From positions 192,001 to 256,000 of the forward strand of contig OY969767.1 in assembly GCA_963702895.1 (NCBI GenBank): DNA of 64,000 nt, in the 5' to 3' direction. Below, one piece after another: positions 36,001 through 42,000 of the stretch. A program made the position numbers. Source of the stretch: an uncultured Elusimicrobia bacterium. Its GTDB lineage: Bacteria > Elusimicrobiota > Elusimicrobia > 2-01-FULL-59-12. Each line of letters starts with the position of its first letter. Position 1 is the first letter of the stretch.

Positions 36001-39000
36001 GGATTGCGCCGCTCGCGCCATCAGAAACCGGTTCCTTGGACTTTGACGCCCCTCAGCCCGACCCCAGGGAGAGCCTCATCAGAGAGCTGGAAAGCCTTCA
36101 TCTCCCACAACTCGGTTTGCCCAGCCAGTTGCTGCATGCGTATGTTGCCATGTCCATCCAGCAACTCGAGAATGGAAGCACCATAAAAGTGCTGGCCTCT
36201 TTGCGCTCGATTAGAGCTCAAACCCCCGTCGAGAGCAAAATTAGCAACGTGCTGATCCAAGAACCGATAAATAGTACAGCTGCCAACAACTTAACACCTC
36301 TCGAAGATAGCATCGTTTATTTTCTGTTTCTGTTGACCCTTGGCGGGGAAACCTTCCGGAAAGCTGTCGCCATGTTTTTCGCATCCGCTCAACTGCCGCC
36401 TGAGATCCTGCAGCTTCTCATCCCTAAAGATTGTCCCGAATTAAACGAATGGAATGAGAAGAGACGCTCTGGTAGAACAAAAACGCTCACTGATGTAGAA
36501 CTTGTGATCGCACGTAAAGCCGTCGGGAGTGACTTTGCATTCAGTACCCCAGCTCTCACTGACTCGGAAAAGGAAGCGCTTCAATATCTGCGTCTTCGCG
36601 AGATCGAAATCCTCCCAACACACCGAATACCTGGCGTGGTTCAATTCCCGGCAGTAAGGAAAGCGCCCCGTATCGTCCGGACGGTCCCTCCTCGTTCTAC
36701 TACGCTCAGTATGAATGGAATCTCGGAACTGGTTTCAATTGGCCAGCAATATCCCCTCGTGAGCTTGGCCGGGCTTGGTTTGTGGTGGGCTGCGATGTTT
36801 CACGCCACCGTCCCCATGATTCTCTTCTGTGGAGCGGCGGTCTCCATCGCCATCTACCGGGCCGACAGCCTCGGTCTATCTCATCCTTCCACACCCGCAA
36901 CTGCCAGCCACTCGCGTTCCAGGCGCCATTTCATGGCCGCCGCCTGAGTCACCCCAAAAGCGTCTGCTCCCATTAACAACGACTATTTTGAGTTGCGTGA
37001 TATGTCCTGGGGGTATTTTGCAGCAACCGTCACACAGGGCAGAGGGAAAAGCCGCCAAGGCGGGGGGAATAGAGGGAAGGCTTCAAGCCGACAGCGCCTG
37101 CCAGGGGGCCCCGTAGGGCAGGTCTCCTTCTTGCAGGCGCTTCTTATTGTGTCAGGCCGCCTGGCAATGGTGCGAATGCCGCCAGTACGCGAACAGGACG
37201 TCGCGGCTCACGCGCTGGCCGTTTTGCTTGAAGTACTGCAGCATCTCGTTGGCGCTGTCGAGGTCTTCGGCTTGAATGAAGTGCATGAGCTGCGCGATCG
37301 CGGCAGCTCGGGTGCTGGCTGCCAGGTCTCTCCTCTTGTCCATTCTGTTGAACATGGCTCACCTCCAGGTAGTCCTTGTGCTGATGATCCGTATGACATG
37401 TACCGTCAAGGACCTCTGCGCCTAAACCATACGAAAGGCACGTTACAGCGACGTTTCGCGCTTGTTACAGGTCTGTAAATCTTTTTAAGCCGGTGGATAG
37501 GACAGAAAGAGTCGTCTTAGCCGGGAATCTGCGTGCGCCAGGACAAACTGTACTGAGCCCAGTGGATGAAAGAGCCACAGCCTAAGGCCTAGCCAGCCAA
37601 GGCATAGCTCGTCTTGCATCGACGGCCGTGAGGCCGGAGGTGAAGCGTAGACAAGTGACAACGCAGGCCGCAAGGTGATAAACCGATCGAGCCCCGAAAA
37701 GAACGGTCATGTTGTGGAAGCCGAGGCGGTGCAGTTAGCCGAAGGCAACAAGGTTCTCGCCAAGACGGCAGGGATAGAGCCTTTCCACCGGGGTCTTACG
37801 AGGGCGGCATGTGTTGAAGGGACAGTGACGGGACCTGGGAGGCCTGCTGGGAGTCCGCTGAGGCGGACGCCGCCAACCCGAGGGACAACCAAAGGGAAAC
37901 GGACCGGCAGGAGTCAGAGAACCCCATAGTACCTAAGAAGCGGGTAACGACCGTGGAGGGAAGGGGGCGACAGGAGGAGGAAGCGATGGAGGGACAGGGA
38001 GCTGATTCACAGAAGTCAGAGACTTCCTTAACGAAACTCCGGCGCGTAGCGGAGCAAGCGAAGCAGAATCAGAAGATGCGCTGGATATCGGTCAATCACC
38101 TGATGGACGTCGACCTTCTGCGGGACAGTTGGAAGCGTCTTGACAAGGGTGGAGCCAGCGGGGTGGATGGCCAGACGGCGCAGGCGTACGGTCAAGACTT
38201 AGAAAAGCGGCTGGAAGAGCTTCACGAGCAACTGAAGGCAGGGACGTACCGGGCACCGCCGGTAAGGCGGGTGTGGATACCCAAATCGGACGGCAGGCAA
38301 CGGCCGATCGGGATACCGACGTTGGAAGACAAGATAGTCCAGCGGGCGGTCGCCACGATCATGGAAGCCGTCATGGAGCCGTTGTTTCTGGAGAGTTCGT
38401 ACGGGTACCGGCCTGGGCGGAACGCCCATCAGGCGTTGTGGTCCATACAACGGACGCTGATGTATCAGCCGATCCACTGGGTGCTGGAGATCGACCTGGA
38501 GTCGTTCTTTGACACCTTGGATCACGGATGGCTGAGACGGATGGTGGACGTACGGATGGGCGATGGGGTGATCCAGCGGCTGATTGGGAAATGGCTGAAC
38601 GCGGGAGTGATGGAGGAAGGAAGGCTGACGCGAACGGACCAAGGGAGCCCGCAAGGCGGGGTGATTTCGCCGATGTTGGCGAACATCTACCTGCATTACG
38701 CGATAGACCTGTGGTTTGTGAAGGTCATCCAACCGAAGCTCAAGGGAGAATCGTGCGCATGGCGATATGCGGACGATATCCTGATGGCGTTCGAGCATGA
38801 AGCGGAGGCGCGCGAGGTCCAAAGGCAGCTTGGGGAGCGTTTGGCGAAGTTTGGCCTAAAGCTCAACCCAAGCAAGACACGTCTGATCCGGTTTGAGAGA
38901 CCCCGGGACACAAACGGGGACGACCCGCCGGATCGGAGCGCGTTCGACTTTCTGGGGTTCACGCACTACTGGGCGAGGAGTCGACGAGGGATGTGGGTGG

Positions 39001-42000
39001 TGAAGCGGAAGACCGCTGGGAAGCGATTACGGCGGGCGATGAGCGCGGTGACGCAGTGGTGCAAAGCGCACCGGCACTGGAAGCTCCGCGAACAGCACCA
39101 GCACCTGAATGCGATTCTTCGAGGGCATTATCAGTATTACGGGATGACCTGGAATTGGGTTGGATTGAGCGTCTTCCACTTACATGTGGTCAGAACGTGG
39201 CAGAGATGGTTGAGCCGCCGGAGTCAGACGGCTTACATTCGCTGGGATCGGATGGAACAGATCCTGGAGAACTATCCCTTGCTACCTCCACGAATTATTC
39301 ATCCTGATCCATGGCGCATGGCACGTGAGTCCTTTTCTTGAAGAGCGTCGTGCGGGAAATCCGCATGCGGCGTTCCGTGAGGGGGTGGGAGGGCGACCTC
39401 CCGCTCTACTCGATAGTTGTCGTCATCCCGGTGAAAACCGGGATCCAGTCCATCGTCGTTGAACTGGACCCCGGCTTCCGCCGGGGTGACGGCACAAAAA
39501 AGCGCATCGAGTTCAGACGATGAGGCAAAATGAACCGAAGTTTTCCGGTTAGTGGTTAACGGGGCAAGGCCCGGCGGAGGACGGTTTTTAGCGGATCGGG
39601 TCCAGGGAGGACATCGAACGGAGGTGCGCCGGCTTCTGTTCGAGCATACAACACAATCTCTTCCCATTCACTTTTCTGAGTTACGGGATAGGGCATCCTT
39701 CGTTCATCTCCGGCTCCGGATCCCGTACCGTGCTTGTGTGCGCAATCATCGTTTCGATTGCGACGCGGGCGCGCTTGTCGGTAGGGCCTCGGTAGTGGAG
39801 ATAACCGCCTTCATCGATCATCACAAAAGCCGGAACATGCGTGACCCCAAAGGCGTGGGCGATCGAGGGTCCACTTTCCGTGAGAAGAGGAGCCTGGATG
39901 CGTGCTTTCTTTAAGCGATGGGCCAGGTCCTGCGAGGTTTCGCCTGGGCCAACGTTCACAGCGACAAACGAGACTCGCCAGTCCTTGTAATCTTCATAAA
40001 ACCTGCTGATCTGTCCCCAGCGCACCTGGTCCTCCGGGCAACTCATGGAAAAAACTCCAAGGACCATGATTTCGAGCGCGGATTTATAGGAGAGAAGAGG
40101 TCTGACTTTCCCGGATTCCGCGACCACGGAAAAGGTCTTTGGGATTTTCTCTCCGATCCTGAGTGTGGGGGTAGAGCTCCCAACCGCCGTGGTGGAGCTC
40201 GTTTTGGGAGGGAAGAACCCCTGTGCTGATGCCGCCGAGCTCATCGCCAAGAACATGCTGCAGAGGAGGAATGTTTTCATGGTTTCTCCAGGCACGCGCC
40301 GCTTTCGAAATCGCCACAGGATGCGGAGGCTGATACGATGCCCATGTTTTTGAGCATCACCAGAGCTGTTTCCTGATCAGCGCGGGTTTCAGGAACGGCG
40401 TCTGCGGGCGGCACAAGCGACACGATGATCTGAAGCTCTTGGATGGCTTCCTTTTTTTGTCCGTGCTCGAGGAGCGCTTCTGCCAAGGCCAGATGGTTGA
40501 TCGCATAGCCCGGACCATATTGTACCGCGAGGCGGGCATGCTCGAGGGCCTTTGATTTGCTGCCTACGGAAAAGAGAGATGGGGATTGACGATAAAACTG
40601 CGCGAGGAGCATATGCGCGTAGGCGAAATTTGGTTTGAGCGTGAGCGCTCTCTGGAGTGCCGCGACGGCTTTCTTCACGGCGCTCAGGCTCCGCATGCTT
40701 TTGCGGGCGTTGGCCCACTGTCCCAGGGCCTCGCCATAGACCGCGTAAGCCTCAGCGCTCTCAGGGCCGGTGCGGACCGCTTCTTCGGCTGCCGAGCGGG
40801 CTTGGTCCGCCCAGGAGCGCCTCACTTGGTTTGACCCCGCGTGGCGCACCGCCCGTCCCATGGCGCTGGCCAAGCGAATCCAGTGCGTCACGTTTTGGGG
40901 TTCTGCTTGAGCTGCCTCTTTCCAAAGGCGTATGGCTTCTTCGGTCTTGCCCGGCTCTGCACGGGCTTGCCAGGCCAGAGCGGCCTGCTGCGCGAGCAGA
41001 GCATCTGCTTGCAGGGACGAGGGATGAGTGACGAGAGAGGAGGCAAGAAAGATGTACAGGAATAACGGGACTGGCGCTGGAGGTGTGAACAAAATCCTTT
41101 TCAATGCGATGTCCTCGTCTCTCAACTCTCGTCCCTCTTCCCAAACCGGGAAGCTTTTGTTGACGTCACCCCGGCGAAAGCCGGGGTCTATCATGTTTCG
41201 ACGTAAATGATGGATCCCGGCGTCCGCCGGGATGACGGCACATAAAAGTCCACTGACCTCAGATGACAAAACCGGTCCGACAGAAGATTCCCGGCTAGTC
41301 CAGAATCCCGCCCAGGTCCTTCCTTAATTGTCGGGCGCTCGTGAAGTGGTGCGCACGTATCCCGATCGACCTTGCCGCGGTGATATGTTCCTTCACATCA
41401 TCGATGAAGACGGCCTTGGCCGGATCGACCTTGGCTTTGCGAAGGGTCAGGAGATAGATCTCAAGCTCCGGCTTCCGGTGTCCGACGGCGTAGGAAGCGA
41501 TCGGGTGGTCAAACCAGTCCATAAAGGCATGGCTCTTACACACATGTTTCCAGTGCATGGGGTTGACGTTCGAGATCATGGCCAGCCGGTAGGACTTTCG
41601 CAAGCGCTTCAGGATCTGGACGGATTCGGGTATCTCTTCAAAAATGTCATTCCACAGCTTCATGAAGGGGCCAAAGTGGAGGCCCTTCAGTTTGAGTTCT
41701 TTCGAGAGGCCCTGAAAGAAATCTTGTTCACTGATCGTGCCGCGCTCAAAGCGGTCCCAGAGCGGGGTGGTTTTAAAGAAGTTGCGGATCTCGTCGATGG
41801 TGTGCGGCGAATGTTTCTTGAGGCCACGGACGACTTTCATGAAGTCAAAGTCGAGCAGGACGCGGCCCAAGTCAAAGATGATCAGTTCAGGACGATTCAT
41901 ATCAGGATGGCGCGAGCCCTCACCCCCACCCTCTCCCGCGTGCACGCGGGAGACCCGCGCTTCCACATTTTCCCTATAGCGCGCAGGTCCCACGGTCGTA

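Follow-up and report, generated by a model that had tools for sequence, protein, structure and literature searches.

The 64-kb window, by which we mean the whole stretch of DNA that was analysed, contains an interrupted copy of a MITE that consists of transposon ends placed around a common hairpin repeat, and that serves four RNA-guided mobile elements, unrelated to one another, as a common landing place. The best explanation in our eyes is a nest of mobile elements (an IS1380-derived shell, a REP cargo inside it, and RNA-guided insertions of an intron and of IS110 elements), to which we give a probability of roughly 80%; the pairings are read from sequence, and movement and splicing are presumed by analogy to known families. 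Each targeting habit is known separately, so that what is new here would be the example, an unusually complete one, rather than any mechanism. The earlier note on this DNA had found no paper, which is right for the combination but not for the single habits, all of them published (RmInt2, IS4321/IS5075, IS621).

The interrupted MITE of the window

The 146-nt MITE lies at 37521-39548 (its first base is 37521, and not 37522 as once noted), carries a 4-bp duplication and has a group IIB intron of 1882 nt inserted behind the twelfth base of its end. Its parts, and three further copies in the window, are:

37517..37520, + strand: target duplication (TTAG), left copy, 4 bp
37521..37532, + strand: short (left) inverted repeat of the MITE, outer 12 nt, containing IBS2 and IBS1
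37533..39414, + strand: group II intron, IIB-type (three exon-binding sites), 1882 nt
37569..37803, + strand: domain I of the intron (Rfam RF02005, 131.7 bits)
37704..37707, + strand: EBS2, 4-nt pairing run from position -10
37731..37736, + strand: EBS1, terminal loop of stem d3, 5/6 paired with the 5' exon
37796..37796, + strand: EBS3, a U opposite A at +1 (the two copies with C at +1 have G instead)
37986..39341, + strand: intron-encoded reverse transcriptase/maturase, 451 aa (TIGR04416, 355.9 bits, cut-off 300)
38766-38777: YADD of the reverse transcriptase/maturase
39341..39414, + strand: domains V-VI of the intron (Rfam RF00029)
39415..39420, + strand: remainder of the short inverted repeat (3' exon)
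39421..39447, + strand: cargo dimer, first CGTC-type REP hairpin (family description in PMC3733652)
39465..39491, - strand: cargo dimer, second CGTC-type REP hairpin, of the kind targeted by IS110-341, with one mismatch to that target
39492..39548, - strand: long arm, 57 nt, homologous to an IS1380-family right end (arm profile against L141, 58/58 positions, E 1.9e-9)
39549..39552, + strand: target duplication (TTAG), right copy, 4 bp
30547..30692: MITE copy without interruption, 146 nt, identical 4-nt flanks
41146..41294: MITE copy, 149 nt, flanks unlike at 2/4
45598..45791: MITE copy, 194 nt, identical 4-nt flanks

Domain I, domains V/VI and the reverse transcriptase/maturase together place the intron in group IIB, and no endonuclease domain was detected in the 451-aa protein. 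EBS1, EBS2 and EBS3 all find a pairing, over 5/6, 4 nt and 1 nt respectively in the window copy.

An IS1380-type shell

MITE calling on the genome, run after in silico removal of all 16 insertions, gave 67 paired-end calls, and 60 were kept once seven false ones inside a resident IS1380 gene had been dropped. Identical 4-nt flanks surround 38/60 (mean 10.4 and maximum 20 in 10,000 shuffles), most of these 38 being training pairs, since 26 pairs picked for having the duplication served to train the end matrix. Its length is exactly 4 nt, with no matches at 2, 3, 5 or 6 nt; 33/38 of the matching flanks are YTAR and five are not, and TTAG/CTAA prevails among MITE flanks. The copies are short (107-345 nt over the 60 calls), non-coding and multi-copy, make up about 0.4% of the genome, end in terminal inverted repeats and have a target duplication that varies with the site (38/60, partly training set), so that the MITE with 4-bp YTAR-type duplications proposed before is a real one. 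Its layout is that of a shell, with a 57-nt right arm and a left repeat of about 18 nt (17-18 nt), enclosing a hairpin cargo that is mostly a dimer of CGTC-type REPs. The cargo starts at position 58 in 44/58 copies and at position 19 from the opposite end in 39/58, and arms and cargo are shuffled among copies. A search for empty shells of 36-100 nt found no real one.

The parent family of the shell was located in metagenomes. Three autonomous elements of 1543-1628 bp (L127, L141 and L161) have the same ends and matching 4-nt flanks and encode IS1380 transposases (NF033539, 238-251 bits, cut-off 180); it is the right end of L141 to which the long-arm profile aligns. The statement that there is no cognate transposase is thus correct for the genome of the MITE, which is 98% complete and in one contig (best tblastn 23-25%), but not beyond it. 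There are related shells with different cargo or lacking these hairpins altogether; in metagenome contigs, related shells with CGTC-like dimers occur as well. Kinship of the ends with a listed 550-nt MITE was not borne out: this roughly 500-nt element is a separate family, with only the inner end core in common and no YTAR flank. An attC-like reading of the ends was discarded, as the flanks are direct repeats. With ISEcp1, ISPme1 and the transposable modules of the IS1380 family (PMC9330008), the MITE shares the transposase family, the 4-bp duplication and ends starting with CC (PMC4133298 tabulates repeats of 4-5 bp for the family). Unlike them it is non-coding, has two genuine ends, a fixed 57-nt arm and a YTAR preference, and holds a hairpin cargo.

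We propose that the shell, homologous as it is to IS1380 ends, arose by internal deletion as a non-autonomous derivative keeping the 57-nt right end and the 17-18-nt left repeat, and that a transposase of the subgroup of IS1380 with these ends, not found in the genome any more, would have copied shell and cargo into YTAR sites, where the duplications lie. Copies persisted mainly at stop codons and between genes, presumably because YTAR contains a stop codon that gets duplicated. A stop codon is found at the insertion site of 22/58 copies against 12% of all YTAR sites, a background that takes in coding sites, so that the excess shows survival and not targeting. The outcome would be an abundant, harmless, intergenic target.

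Could an enzyme still resident in the genome have moved the MITE? The 1815-bp IS1380 is of the same family, is present in seven identical copies with an open frame, and contains the same hairpin in its left end. Yet its ends differ, its duplications measure 6-7 bp, its transposase is only 23-25% identical to those with matching ends, and the shell whose ends do resemble its own is another one, with two copies and a 7-bp duplication; we regard this origin as very improbable. Resident elements tried as parent, namely an IS4-like element (7 copies), a 1388-bp element (9 copies) and the 1815-bp IS1380 (7 copies), were rejected for mismatches in ends and duplication length. Nor do we see much chance for an account without any transposon, in which gene conversion, or some other route, spreads REP dimers with conserved flanks and the repeat itself includes the 4-nt matches. 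The TTAG/CTAA of most flanks and the shuffling of arms and cargo would fit it, but the rare flanks (the five non-YTAR cases) are also matched on both sides, the long arm has its homologue in a real IS1380 end, and related shells hold other cargo or none of these hairpins.

Sixteen insertions and their guides

All 16 insertions, 13 IS110 copies and three group II introns, were recovered with the junctions described earlier. The claim that the MITE is the landing pad of all 16 has to be loosened: 12/16 lie within two-ended copies and two at lone ends, but one IS110-341 copy is in a different shell and another in a hairpin without a scored end. Neither are the hairpins mainly parts of the MITE, both kinds being genome-wide REP-type repeats found mostly outside MITEs (332/475 and 100/118 motif matches). 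Only the intron and the IS1111-type element, IS110-347, aim at the transposon end; IS110-341 and IS110-317 aim at hairpins. None of the 23 DDE-type IS copies lies within MITE or hairpin.

Judging from the pairings, the intron would reverse-splice after base 12 of the end via EBS1-3. The earlier placement of EBS1 is backed by the Rfam model and by control introns, and the EBS1 words then given are present, pairing at 6/6 in two introns but 5/6 in that of the window. EBS3 is U with A at +1 and G with C at +1 in 4/4 introns, and the intron exists as two variants, fitted to two end variants. A relative (L039), found in another genome, occupies the corresponding base of an element whose ends and duplication are the same; the EBS2 of L039 is altered along with the end, and its EBS1 pairs at only 3/6. 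Searches for further relatives at such ends returned one in a GTDB scan and the same one among 401 genomes, and none of 11 viral-contig matches has the intron domain I. Two of the three introns are on the lagging-strand template, which is uninformative. Intron pieces are present in contigs of four DNA sequencing runs; among the listed pieces none spans the 5' junction, and no empty alleles or new intron sites were seen. The holders listed include no RNA sequencing runs. Like RmInt2 of Sinorhizobium meliloti GR4 (class D, IIB3), which according to PMC4615759 and PMC5894124 homes into both inverted repeats of the DNA transposon ISRm17 via EBS1-3 with mismatches tolerated, this is an endonuclease-less IIB intron with a U-A EBS3 pair. 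In contrast to RmInt2, it is aimed at an IS1380-type end that belongs to a non-autonomous MITE, it comes in two variants matched to the two variants of the end, and its protein lacks the C-terminal class D motif as quoted in PMC4615759.

A DEDD transposase in 4/4 proteins (NF033542, 193-234 bits, cut-off 140) assigns the other elements to the IS110 family; IS110-347 belongs to the IS1111 group, having sub-terminal inverted repeats and a long non-coding end downstream. IS110-347 inserts within bases 9-11 of the MITE end, where it would recombine through a bridge RNA; the element has two variants, each suited to one variant of the end, whose insertion points differ by one base and one of which has a mismatched core. 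In four relatives the same guide positions match other targets (by eye). That guides match targets and change with them stands for most elements, the guide words reported being present, but IS110-317 matches poorly. Shuffling the bases of their non-coding ends 20,000 times gave both words in order in 0 (IS110-341), 1 (IS110-347) and 74 (IS110-317) cases. The putative IS110-341 guides are 8 and 7 nt exact, and no relatives with an intact left end were found. In IS110-317, the left guide agrees with its targets at 5-6/9 positions, its ideal target being absent from the genome, and the other at 6/8; one relative has guides that match its own target at 8/9 and 7/8, and the remaining three of four were judged only by eye. 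Under free folding the guide loops do not stay open; an open two-sided loop forms only with constraints for IS110-341 and IS110-317, and not for IS110-347 even when constrained. Among relative loci (6 for IS110-347, 1 for IS110-341, 4 for IS110-317) none is in a MITE end. IS110-347 resembles IS4321/IS5075, which are IS1111-type, have sub-terminal repeats and a downstream guide RNA and aim at a transposon end, but its target is a 17-nt IS1380-type end and its variants are shifted by one base. IS621, ISPa11, ISPpu9 and ISPpu10 (PMC11208160, PMC11187229 and, for ISPpu10, the preprint 10.64898/2026.03.19.712850) are IS110-family elements within REP sequences. In common with the two hairpin-aimed IS110s here, they have a multi-copy intergenic hairpin as target and a bridge RNA upstream, putative in our case, that holds a left and a right target guide. 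The hairpins aimed at here belong to a CGTC-type REP and to another hairpin family, and are in part MITE-borne.

The IS110-341 target occurs 42 times when the five occupied sites are restored, leaving the 37 empty sites counted before, and MITE-borne copies are not preferred (3/5 occupied versus 23/42 available, P=0.59). IS110-317 is in MITE-borne hairpins in 3/3 cases though 7/21 hairpin sites are MITE-borne (hand count, P=0.026), a bias that pure hairpin targeting leaves unexplained. From their pairings, both would be aimed at hairpins, and it is mainly through its hairpins that the MITE would be hit; we attribute the convergence of the four elements to copy number and safety, and not to a shared mechanism. 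The stronger reading in the earlier note, in which all four recognise the MITE as a whole, draws on the 14/16 insertions that touch the MITE or one of its ends in so small a part of the genome, and on the IS110-317 bias. It is at odds with IS110-341, whose occupancy follows availability, whose two exceptional copies lie in another shell and in a hairpin with no scored end, and whose relative in G428 adjoins a different hairpin, and with the unrelated targets of IS110-317 and IS110-347 relatives; we think it unlikely. We give still less credit to a single insertion of IS110s and introns, multiplied afterwards as passengers of a moving MITE: IS1380 elements are able to carry adjacent DNA (PMC9330008), and both MITE ends are intact after hairpin insertions, but arms, cargo and length vary from one occupied copy to another, the terminal repeat is broken by the intron and by IS110-347, and the IS copies are near-identical when their host MITE copies are not. 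Under the nested explanation, six variants of RNA guides, two from introns and four from IS110 elements, can be read together with their targets in one genome; this natural set, with its IS1111 pair shifted by one base and with a mismatched core, would be useful for the rules of guide re-programming.

CGTC REPs as cargo

As cargo the shell holds a palindromic repeat that belongs to the host genome, in most cases a head-to-head dimer, with the CGTC tag, stem-loop, CCA tail and many extragenic copies of CGTC REPs. A RAYT-type enzyme was considered for the hairpins and set aside, with one weak Y1 fragment as the only find. The CGTC-tagged REPs of Di Nocera et al. 2013 (PMC3733652) agree in tag, short stem, tail and head-to-head dimers; that text gives them no dedicated transposase and calls links to other transposases merely fortuitous, and reports every dimer of Halothiobacillus neapolitanus within a 41-bp palindrome. 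Neisseria dRS3, a CGTC-tagged REP, is the target of phage Nf1 (PMC3898611). Here, unlike there, 44/131 CGTC REP dimers of the genome are inside an IS1380-type shell with duplications, and their median nearest-neighbour identity (0.95 versus 0.82 for the others) indicates that shell-borne dimers are younger. MITE shells may spread CGTC REPs, repeats without a known transposase, and make it testable how these spread. More tentatively, and at somewhat less than even odds, IS1380-type end pairs could be a general vehicle for CGTC REP dimers. The repeat, once amplified, would then drive RNA guides as unrelated as the intron EBS and the IS110 bridge RNA to be re-programmed in parallel, towards one set of 17 bases and one pair of end variants. 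Behind this idea are the cargo fixed at base 58, the youngest dimers being shell-borne, the CGTC-like dimers in related metagenome shells, and a second IS1380 lineage that did the same in this genome.

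Targets of the 16 insertions

The targeting of a short MITE by mobile elements in this genome is real and well supported, and it is a variant of already known behaviour. As far as the available text of the sources goes, RmInt2 is an intron found in IS inverted repeats (PMC4615759, PMC5894124), IS4321 and IS5075 are IS1111 elements in transposon ends, IS110 elements have been described in REPs (PMC11208160, PMC11187229; also ISPpu10), and one previous observation, in H. neapolitanus, placed CGTC dimers within a palindromic shell (PMC3733652). In the literature covered, with most subscription papers and supplements outside its scope, we found no paper that describes REPs carried by IS1380 MITEs, introns inserted into IS1380 ends, or the convergence of an intron and IS110 elements on such a MITE.

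The earlier note had proposed a single landing pad for all 13 IS110 copies and three group II introns. This is too strong: two-ended MITE copies contain only 12 of the 16 insertions (IS110-341, 3/5; IS110-317, 3/3; IS110-347, 4/5; introns, 2/3) and IS110-341 shows no preference for the MITE: it occupies MITE-borne sites no more often than expected (3/5 versus 23/42 available, P=0.59). One IS110-347 and one intron occupy lone MITE ends, and the remaining two IS110-341 copies lie in a second shell, with ends like those of a resident IS1380, and in a hairpin dimer with possible ends too eroded to reach the threshold. IS110-317 may prefer MITE-borne hairpins (3/3 versus 7/21 available by hand count, P=0.026). 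The composite MITE is better described as bringing together two separate targets, a transposon end and hairpins of the host, than as one landing pad. None of the 23 DDE-type IS copies in the present genome lies in a MITE or hairpin. Two elements of the contig (C1), neither found in hairpins or MITEs, are an IS4-like element (1272 bp, seven copies, 10-11-bp duplications) and an IS of 1385-1388 bp (nine copies, ~9-bp duplications).

The MITE and its parent family

The genome is a single contig of 2.72 Mb, with 57% GC and 98% completeness; the window covers C1 192001-256000. Besides three further MITE copies, the window holds an intron-split one:

37521-39548, MITE of 146 nt flanked by two TTAG copies, split after base 12 by an intron
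37533-39414, group II intron of 1882 nt, inside this MITE, after its 12th base

Directly upstream of the split element lies a 2008-codon frame (30921-36947) with one helix-turn-helix match.

Paired ends were called without flank information on the genome from which the 13 IS110 copies and three introns had been removed in silico. Seven of the 67 calls were chance pairs within the resident IS1380 gene and were excluded; in 38 of the other 60 the two 4-nt flanks are identical (shuffle mean 10.4, maximum 20), and 33 of these are of YTAR type. The count is circular in part, because the 26 training pairs of the end matrix had duplications. Stronger evidence comes from the five matching non-YTAR pairs and from outside IS1380 elements with the same ends, and together these observations bear out the MITE described earlier.

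Anatomy was counted over 58 copies, leaving aside two cargo-less calls. The long end is a 57-nt arm, behind which the cargo hairpin begins at position 58 in 44 copies and at 55-57 in ten (no start was found in four), and both hairpin types occur behind this same arm. The short end barely exceeds its 17-nt repeat, with cargo from position 19 in 39/58. Of the 58 copies, 22 coincide with the stop codon that ends a long frame, versus 12.1% of 9,820 YTAR sites; 40/58 are at most 60 nt downstream of a stop, and 4/58 are wholly within long frames. Two further arrangements are a tandem of three cargo-bearing short arms at 105-nt spacing followed by one long arm (C1 1380373-1380728), and an intron-bearing MITE head to tail with a 320-nt MITE, one 4-nt flank being common to both (C1 1961784-1964179). 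A ~500-550-nt element with at least five copies on C1, probably the 550-nt MITE mentioned in the earlier note, resembles the MITE at its ends only in their inner core: the outer bases differ and YTAR flanks are absent.

In a phylum sample, 56 of the 401 genomes, the present one counted, contain the end pattern (reversed control, at most one match per genome), which also occurs at no fewer than 121 metagenome loci. Among the metagenome loci listed and 20 genome stretches, at least three complete elements (1543, 1543 and 1628 bp) have MITE ends and encode an IS1380-family transposase, with matching flanks of 4 nt, and at least two further loci have an IS1380 transposase and one end only. The long-arm profile aligns over all 58 positions to the right end of L141, an IS1380 element with matching ends (E 1.9e-9). 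Used as queries on the present genome, the matching-end transposases found only the resident 1815-bp IS1380, at 23-25% identity; this element was rejected as the mover, given that low identity, its different ends and its 6-7-bp duplications. The mover is thus known by family, yet did not appear in the genome search: the absence of a cognate transposase stands for this genome, while outside elements with the same ends identify the family as IS1380. In G006, a genome of the same family, the contig ends at L011, L017 and L002/L020 correspond to the left end of L141 and to the long MITE arm; the parent element is therefore probably present in G006 but split up by the assembly.

Probable target recognition by introns and IS110 elements

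The window intron has Rfam matches to domain I and domain V/VI and encodes a 451-aa RT/maturase; no class D motif was found in the intron protein. The Rfam model places EBS1 in the d3 terminal loop, in agreement with the position proposed previously, and exon pairing at this loop was seen by eye in three distant introns. Predicted EBS1 pairing is 5/6 in the window intron and 6/6 in the other two copies; 106 sites distinguish these two from the window intron. Another end variant is fully complementary to the window EBS1, and it occurs nine times on short arms that also have the fitting +1 base. EBS3 places U opposite A and G opposite C in 4/4 introns. A related intron in another genome (L039, 80% protein identity) follows base 12 of an element of ~650 nt, both sides of which show the same end and duplication. 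Its EBS2 has changed along with its end; against this account of intron targeting, its EBS1 pairs only 3/6. The host element (L039 2535-5069) resembles an internally deleted IS1380, and its inner sequence, by eye, is like the left end of L127, another matching-end IS1380.

All four IS110 proteins passed NF033542. IS110-347 is of IS1111 type: its repeats are sub-terminal and its RNA lies downstream. Along the target, the MITE end taken from the outside inwards, the left guide matches the repeat as far as the core and the right guide matches what lies beyond it; after the right guide come bases that match the end of IS110-347 itself. The same guide positions match the unrelated targets of four relatives, by eye. 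In a second variant (88% protein identity) the insertion point is shifted by one base; its junctions would follow if the target core were different from the donor core, with either top strand retaining its own. The guides of IS110-341 match exactly over 8 and 7 nt and flank a small hairpin, and its target and donor cores differ at one base; the matches of IS110-317 are 5-6/9 and 6/8. In 20,000 base shuffles both guide words occurred in order 0 times for IS110-341, once for IS110-347 and 74 times for IS110-317. Free folding did not leave the guide loops open. At two loci elsewhere (L222 in G428, L229 in G430), relatives of IS110-341 and IS110-317 adjoin other palindromic repeats (by eye), and therefore these lineages seem to re-aim at whichever repeat is common.

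Hairpins and their shells

The main cargo hairpin fits the CGTC REP description in the available text of PMC3733652. It is not specific to the MITE: 332 of 475 matches to its motif, and 100 of 118 to that of the second hairpin, fall neither in paired calls nor at lone ends. Head-to-head dimers number 131, of which 44 are within MITE calls, and among the remaining 87 there are 28 with a flank whose likeness to the arm exceeds the 99th percentile for random sites; hence about half were or are shell-borne. A neighbour at ≥95% was found for 21/44 shell-borne dimers versus 13/93 outside (before overlapping dimer calls were removed). Judged by this similarity, shell-borne dimers are the younger. The MITE shell as a carrier of CGTC REPs is a lead worth testing.

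The resident IS1380 has a CGTC-type hairpin ~27 nt inside its left end in 7/7 copies (e.g. C1 508.3-510.1 kb); a broken copy lies near C1 1893.6 kb. The second shell, present twice (C1 ~504.6-506.1 kb and ~1281.9-1282.1 kb), also carries a CGTC dimer, with a 7-bp duplication at one copy and IS110-341 inside the other. Related shells of 146, 160-161 and 179 nt in other genomes have other hairpins: the exact motifs of the present genome occur in 2 of 52 among the loci listed, and the 146-nt shells hold a variant CGTC dimer (by eye). These lengths recur across genomes with differing interiors (loci L065-L205), which hints at a length constraint. At one locus (L032 in G020, past position 1501, minus strand) a MITE relative continues directly, by eye, into sequence like the C-terminus of an IS110 transposase.
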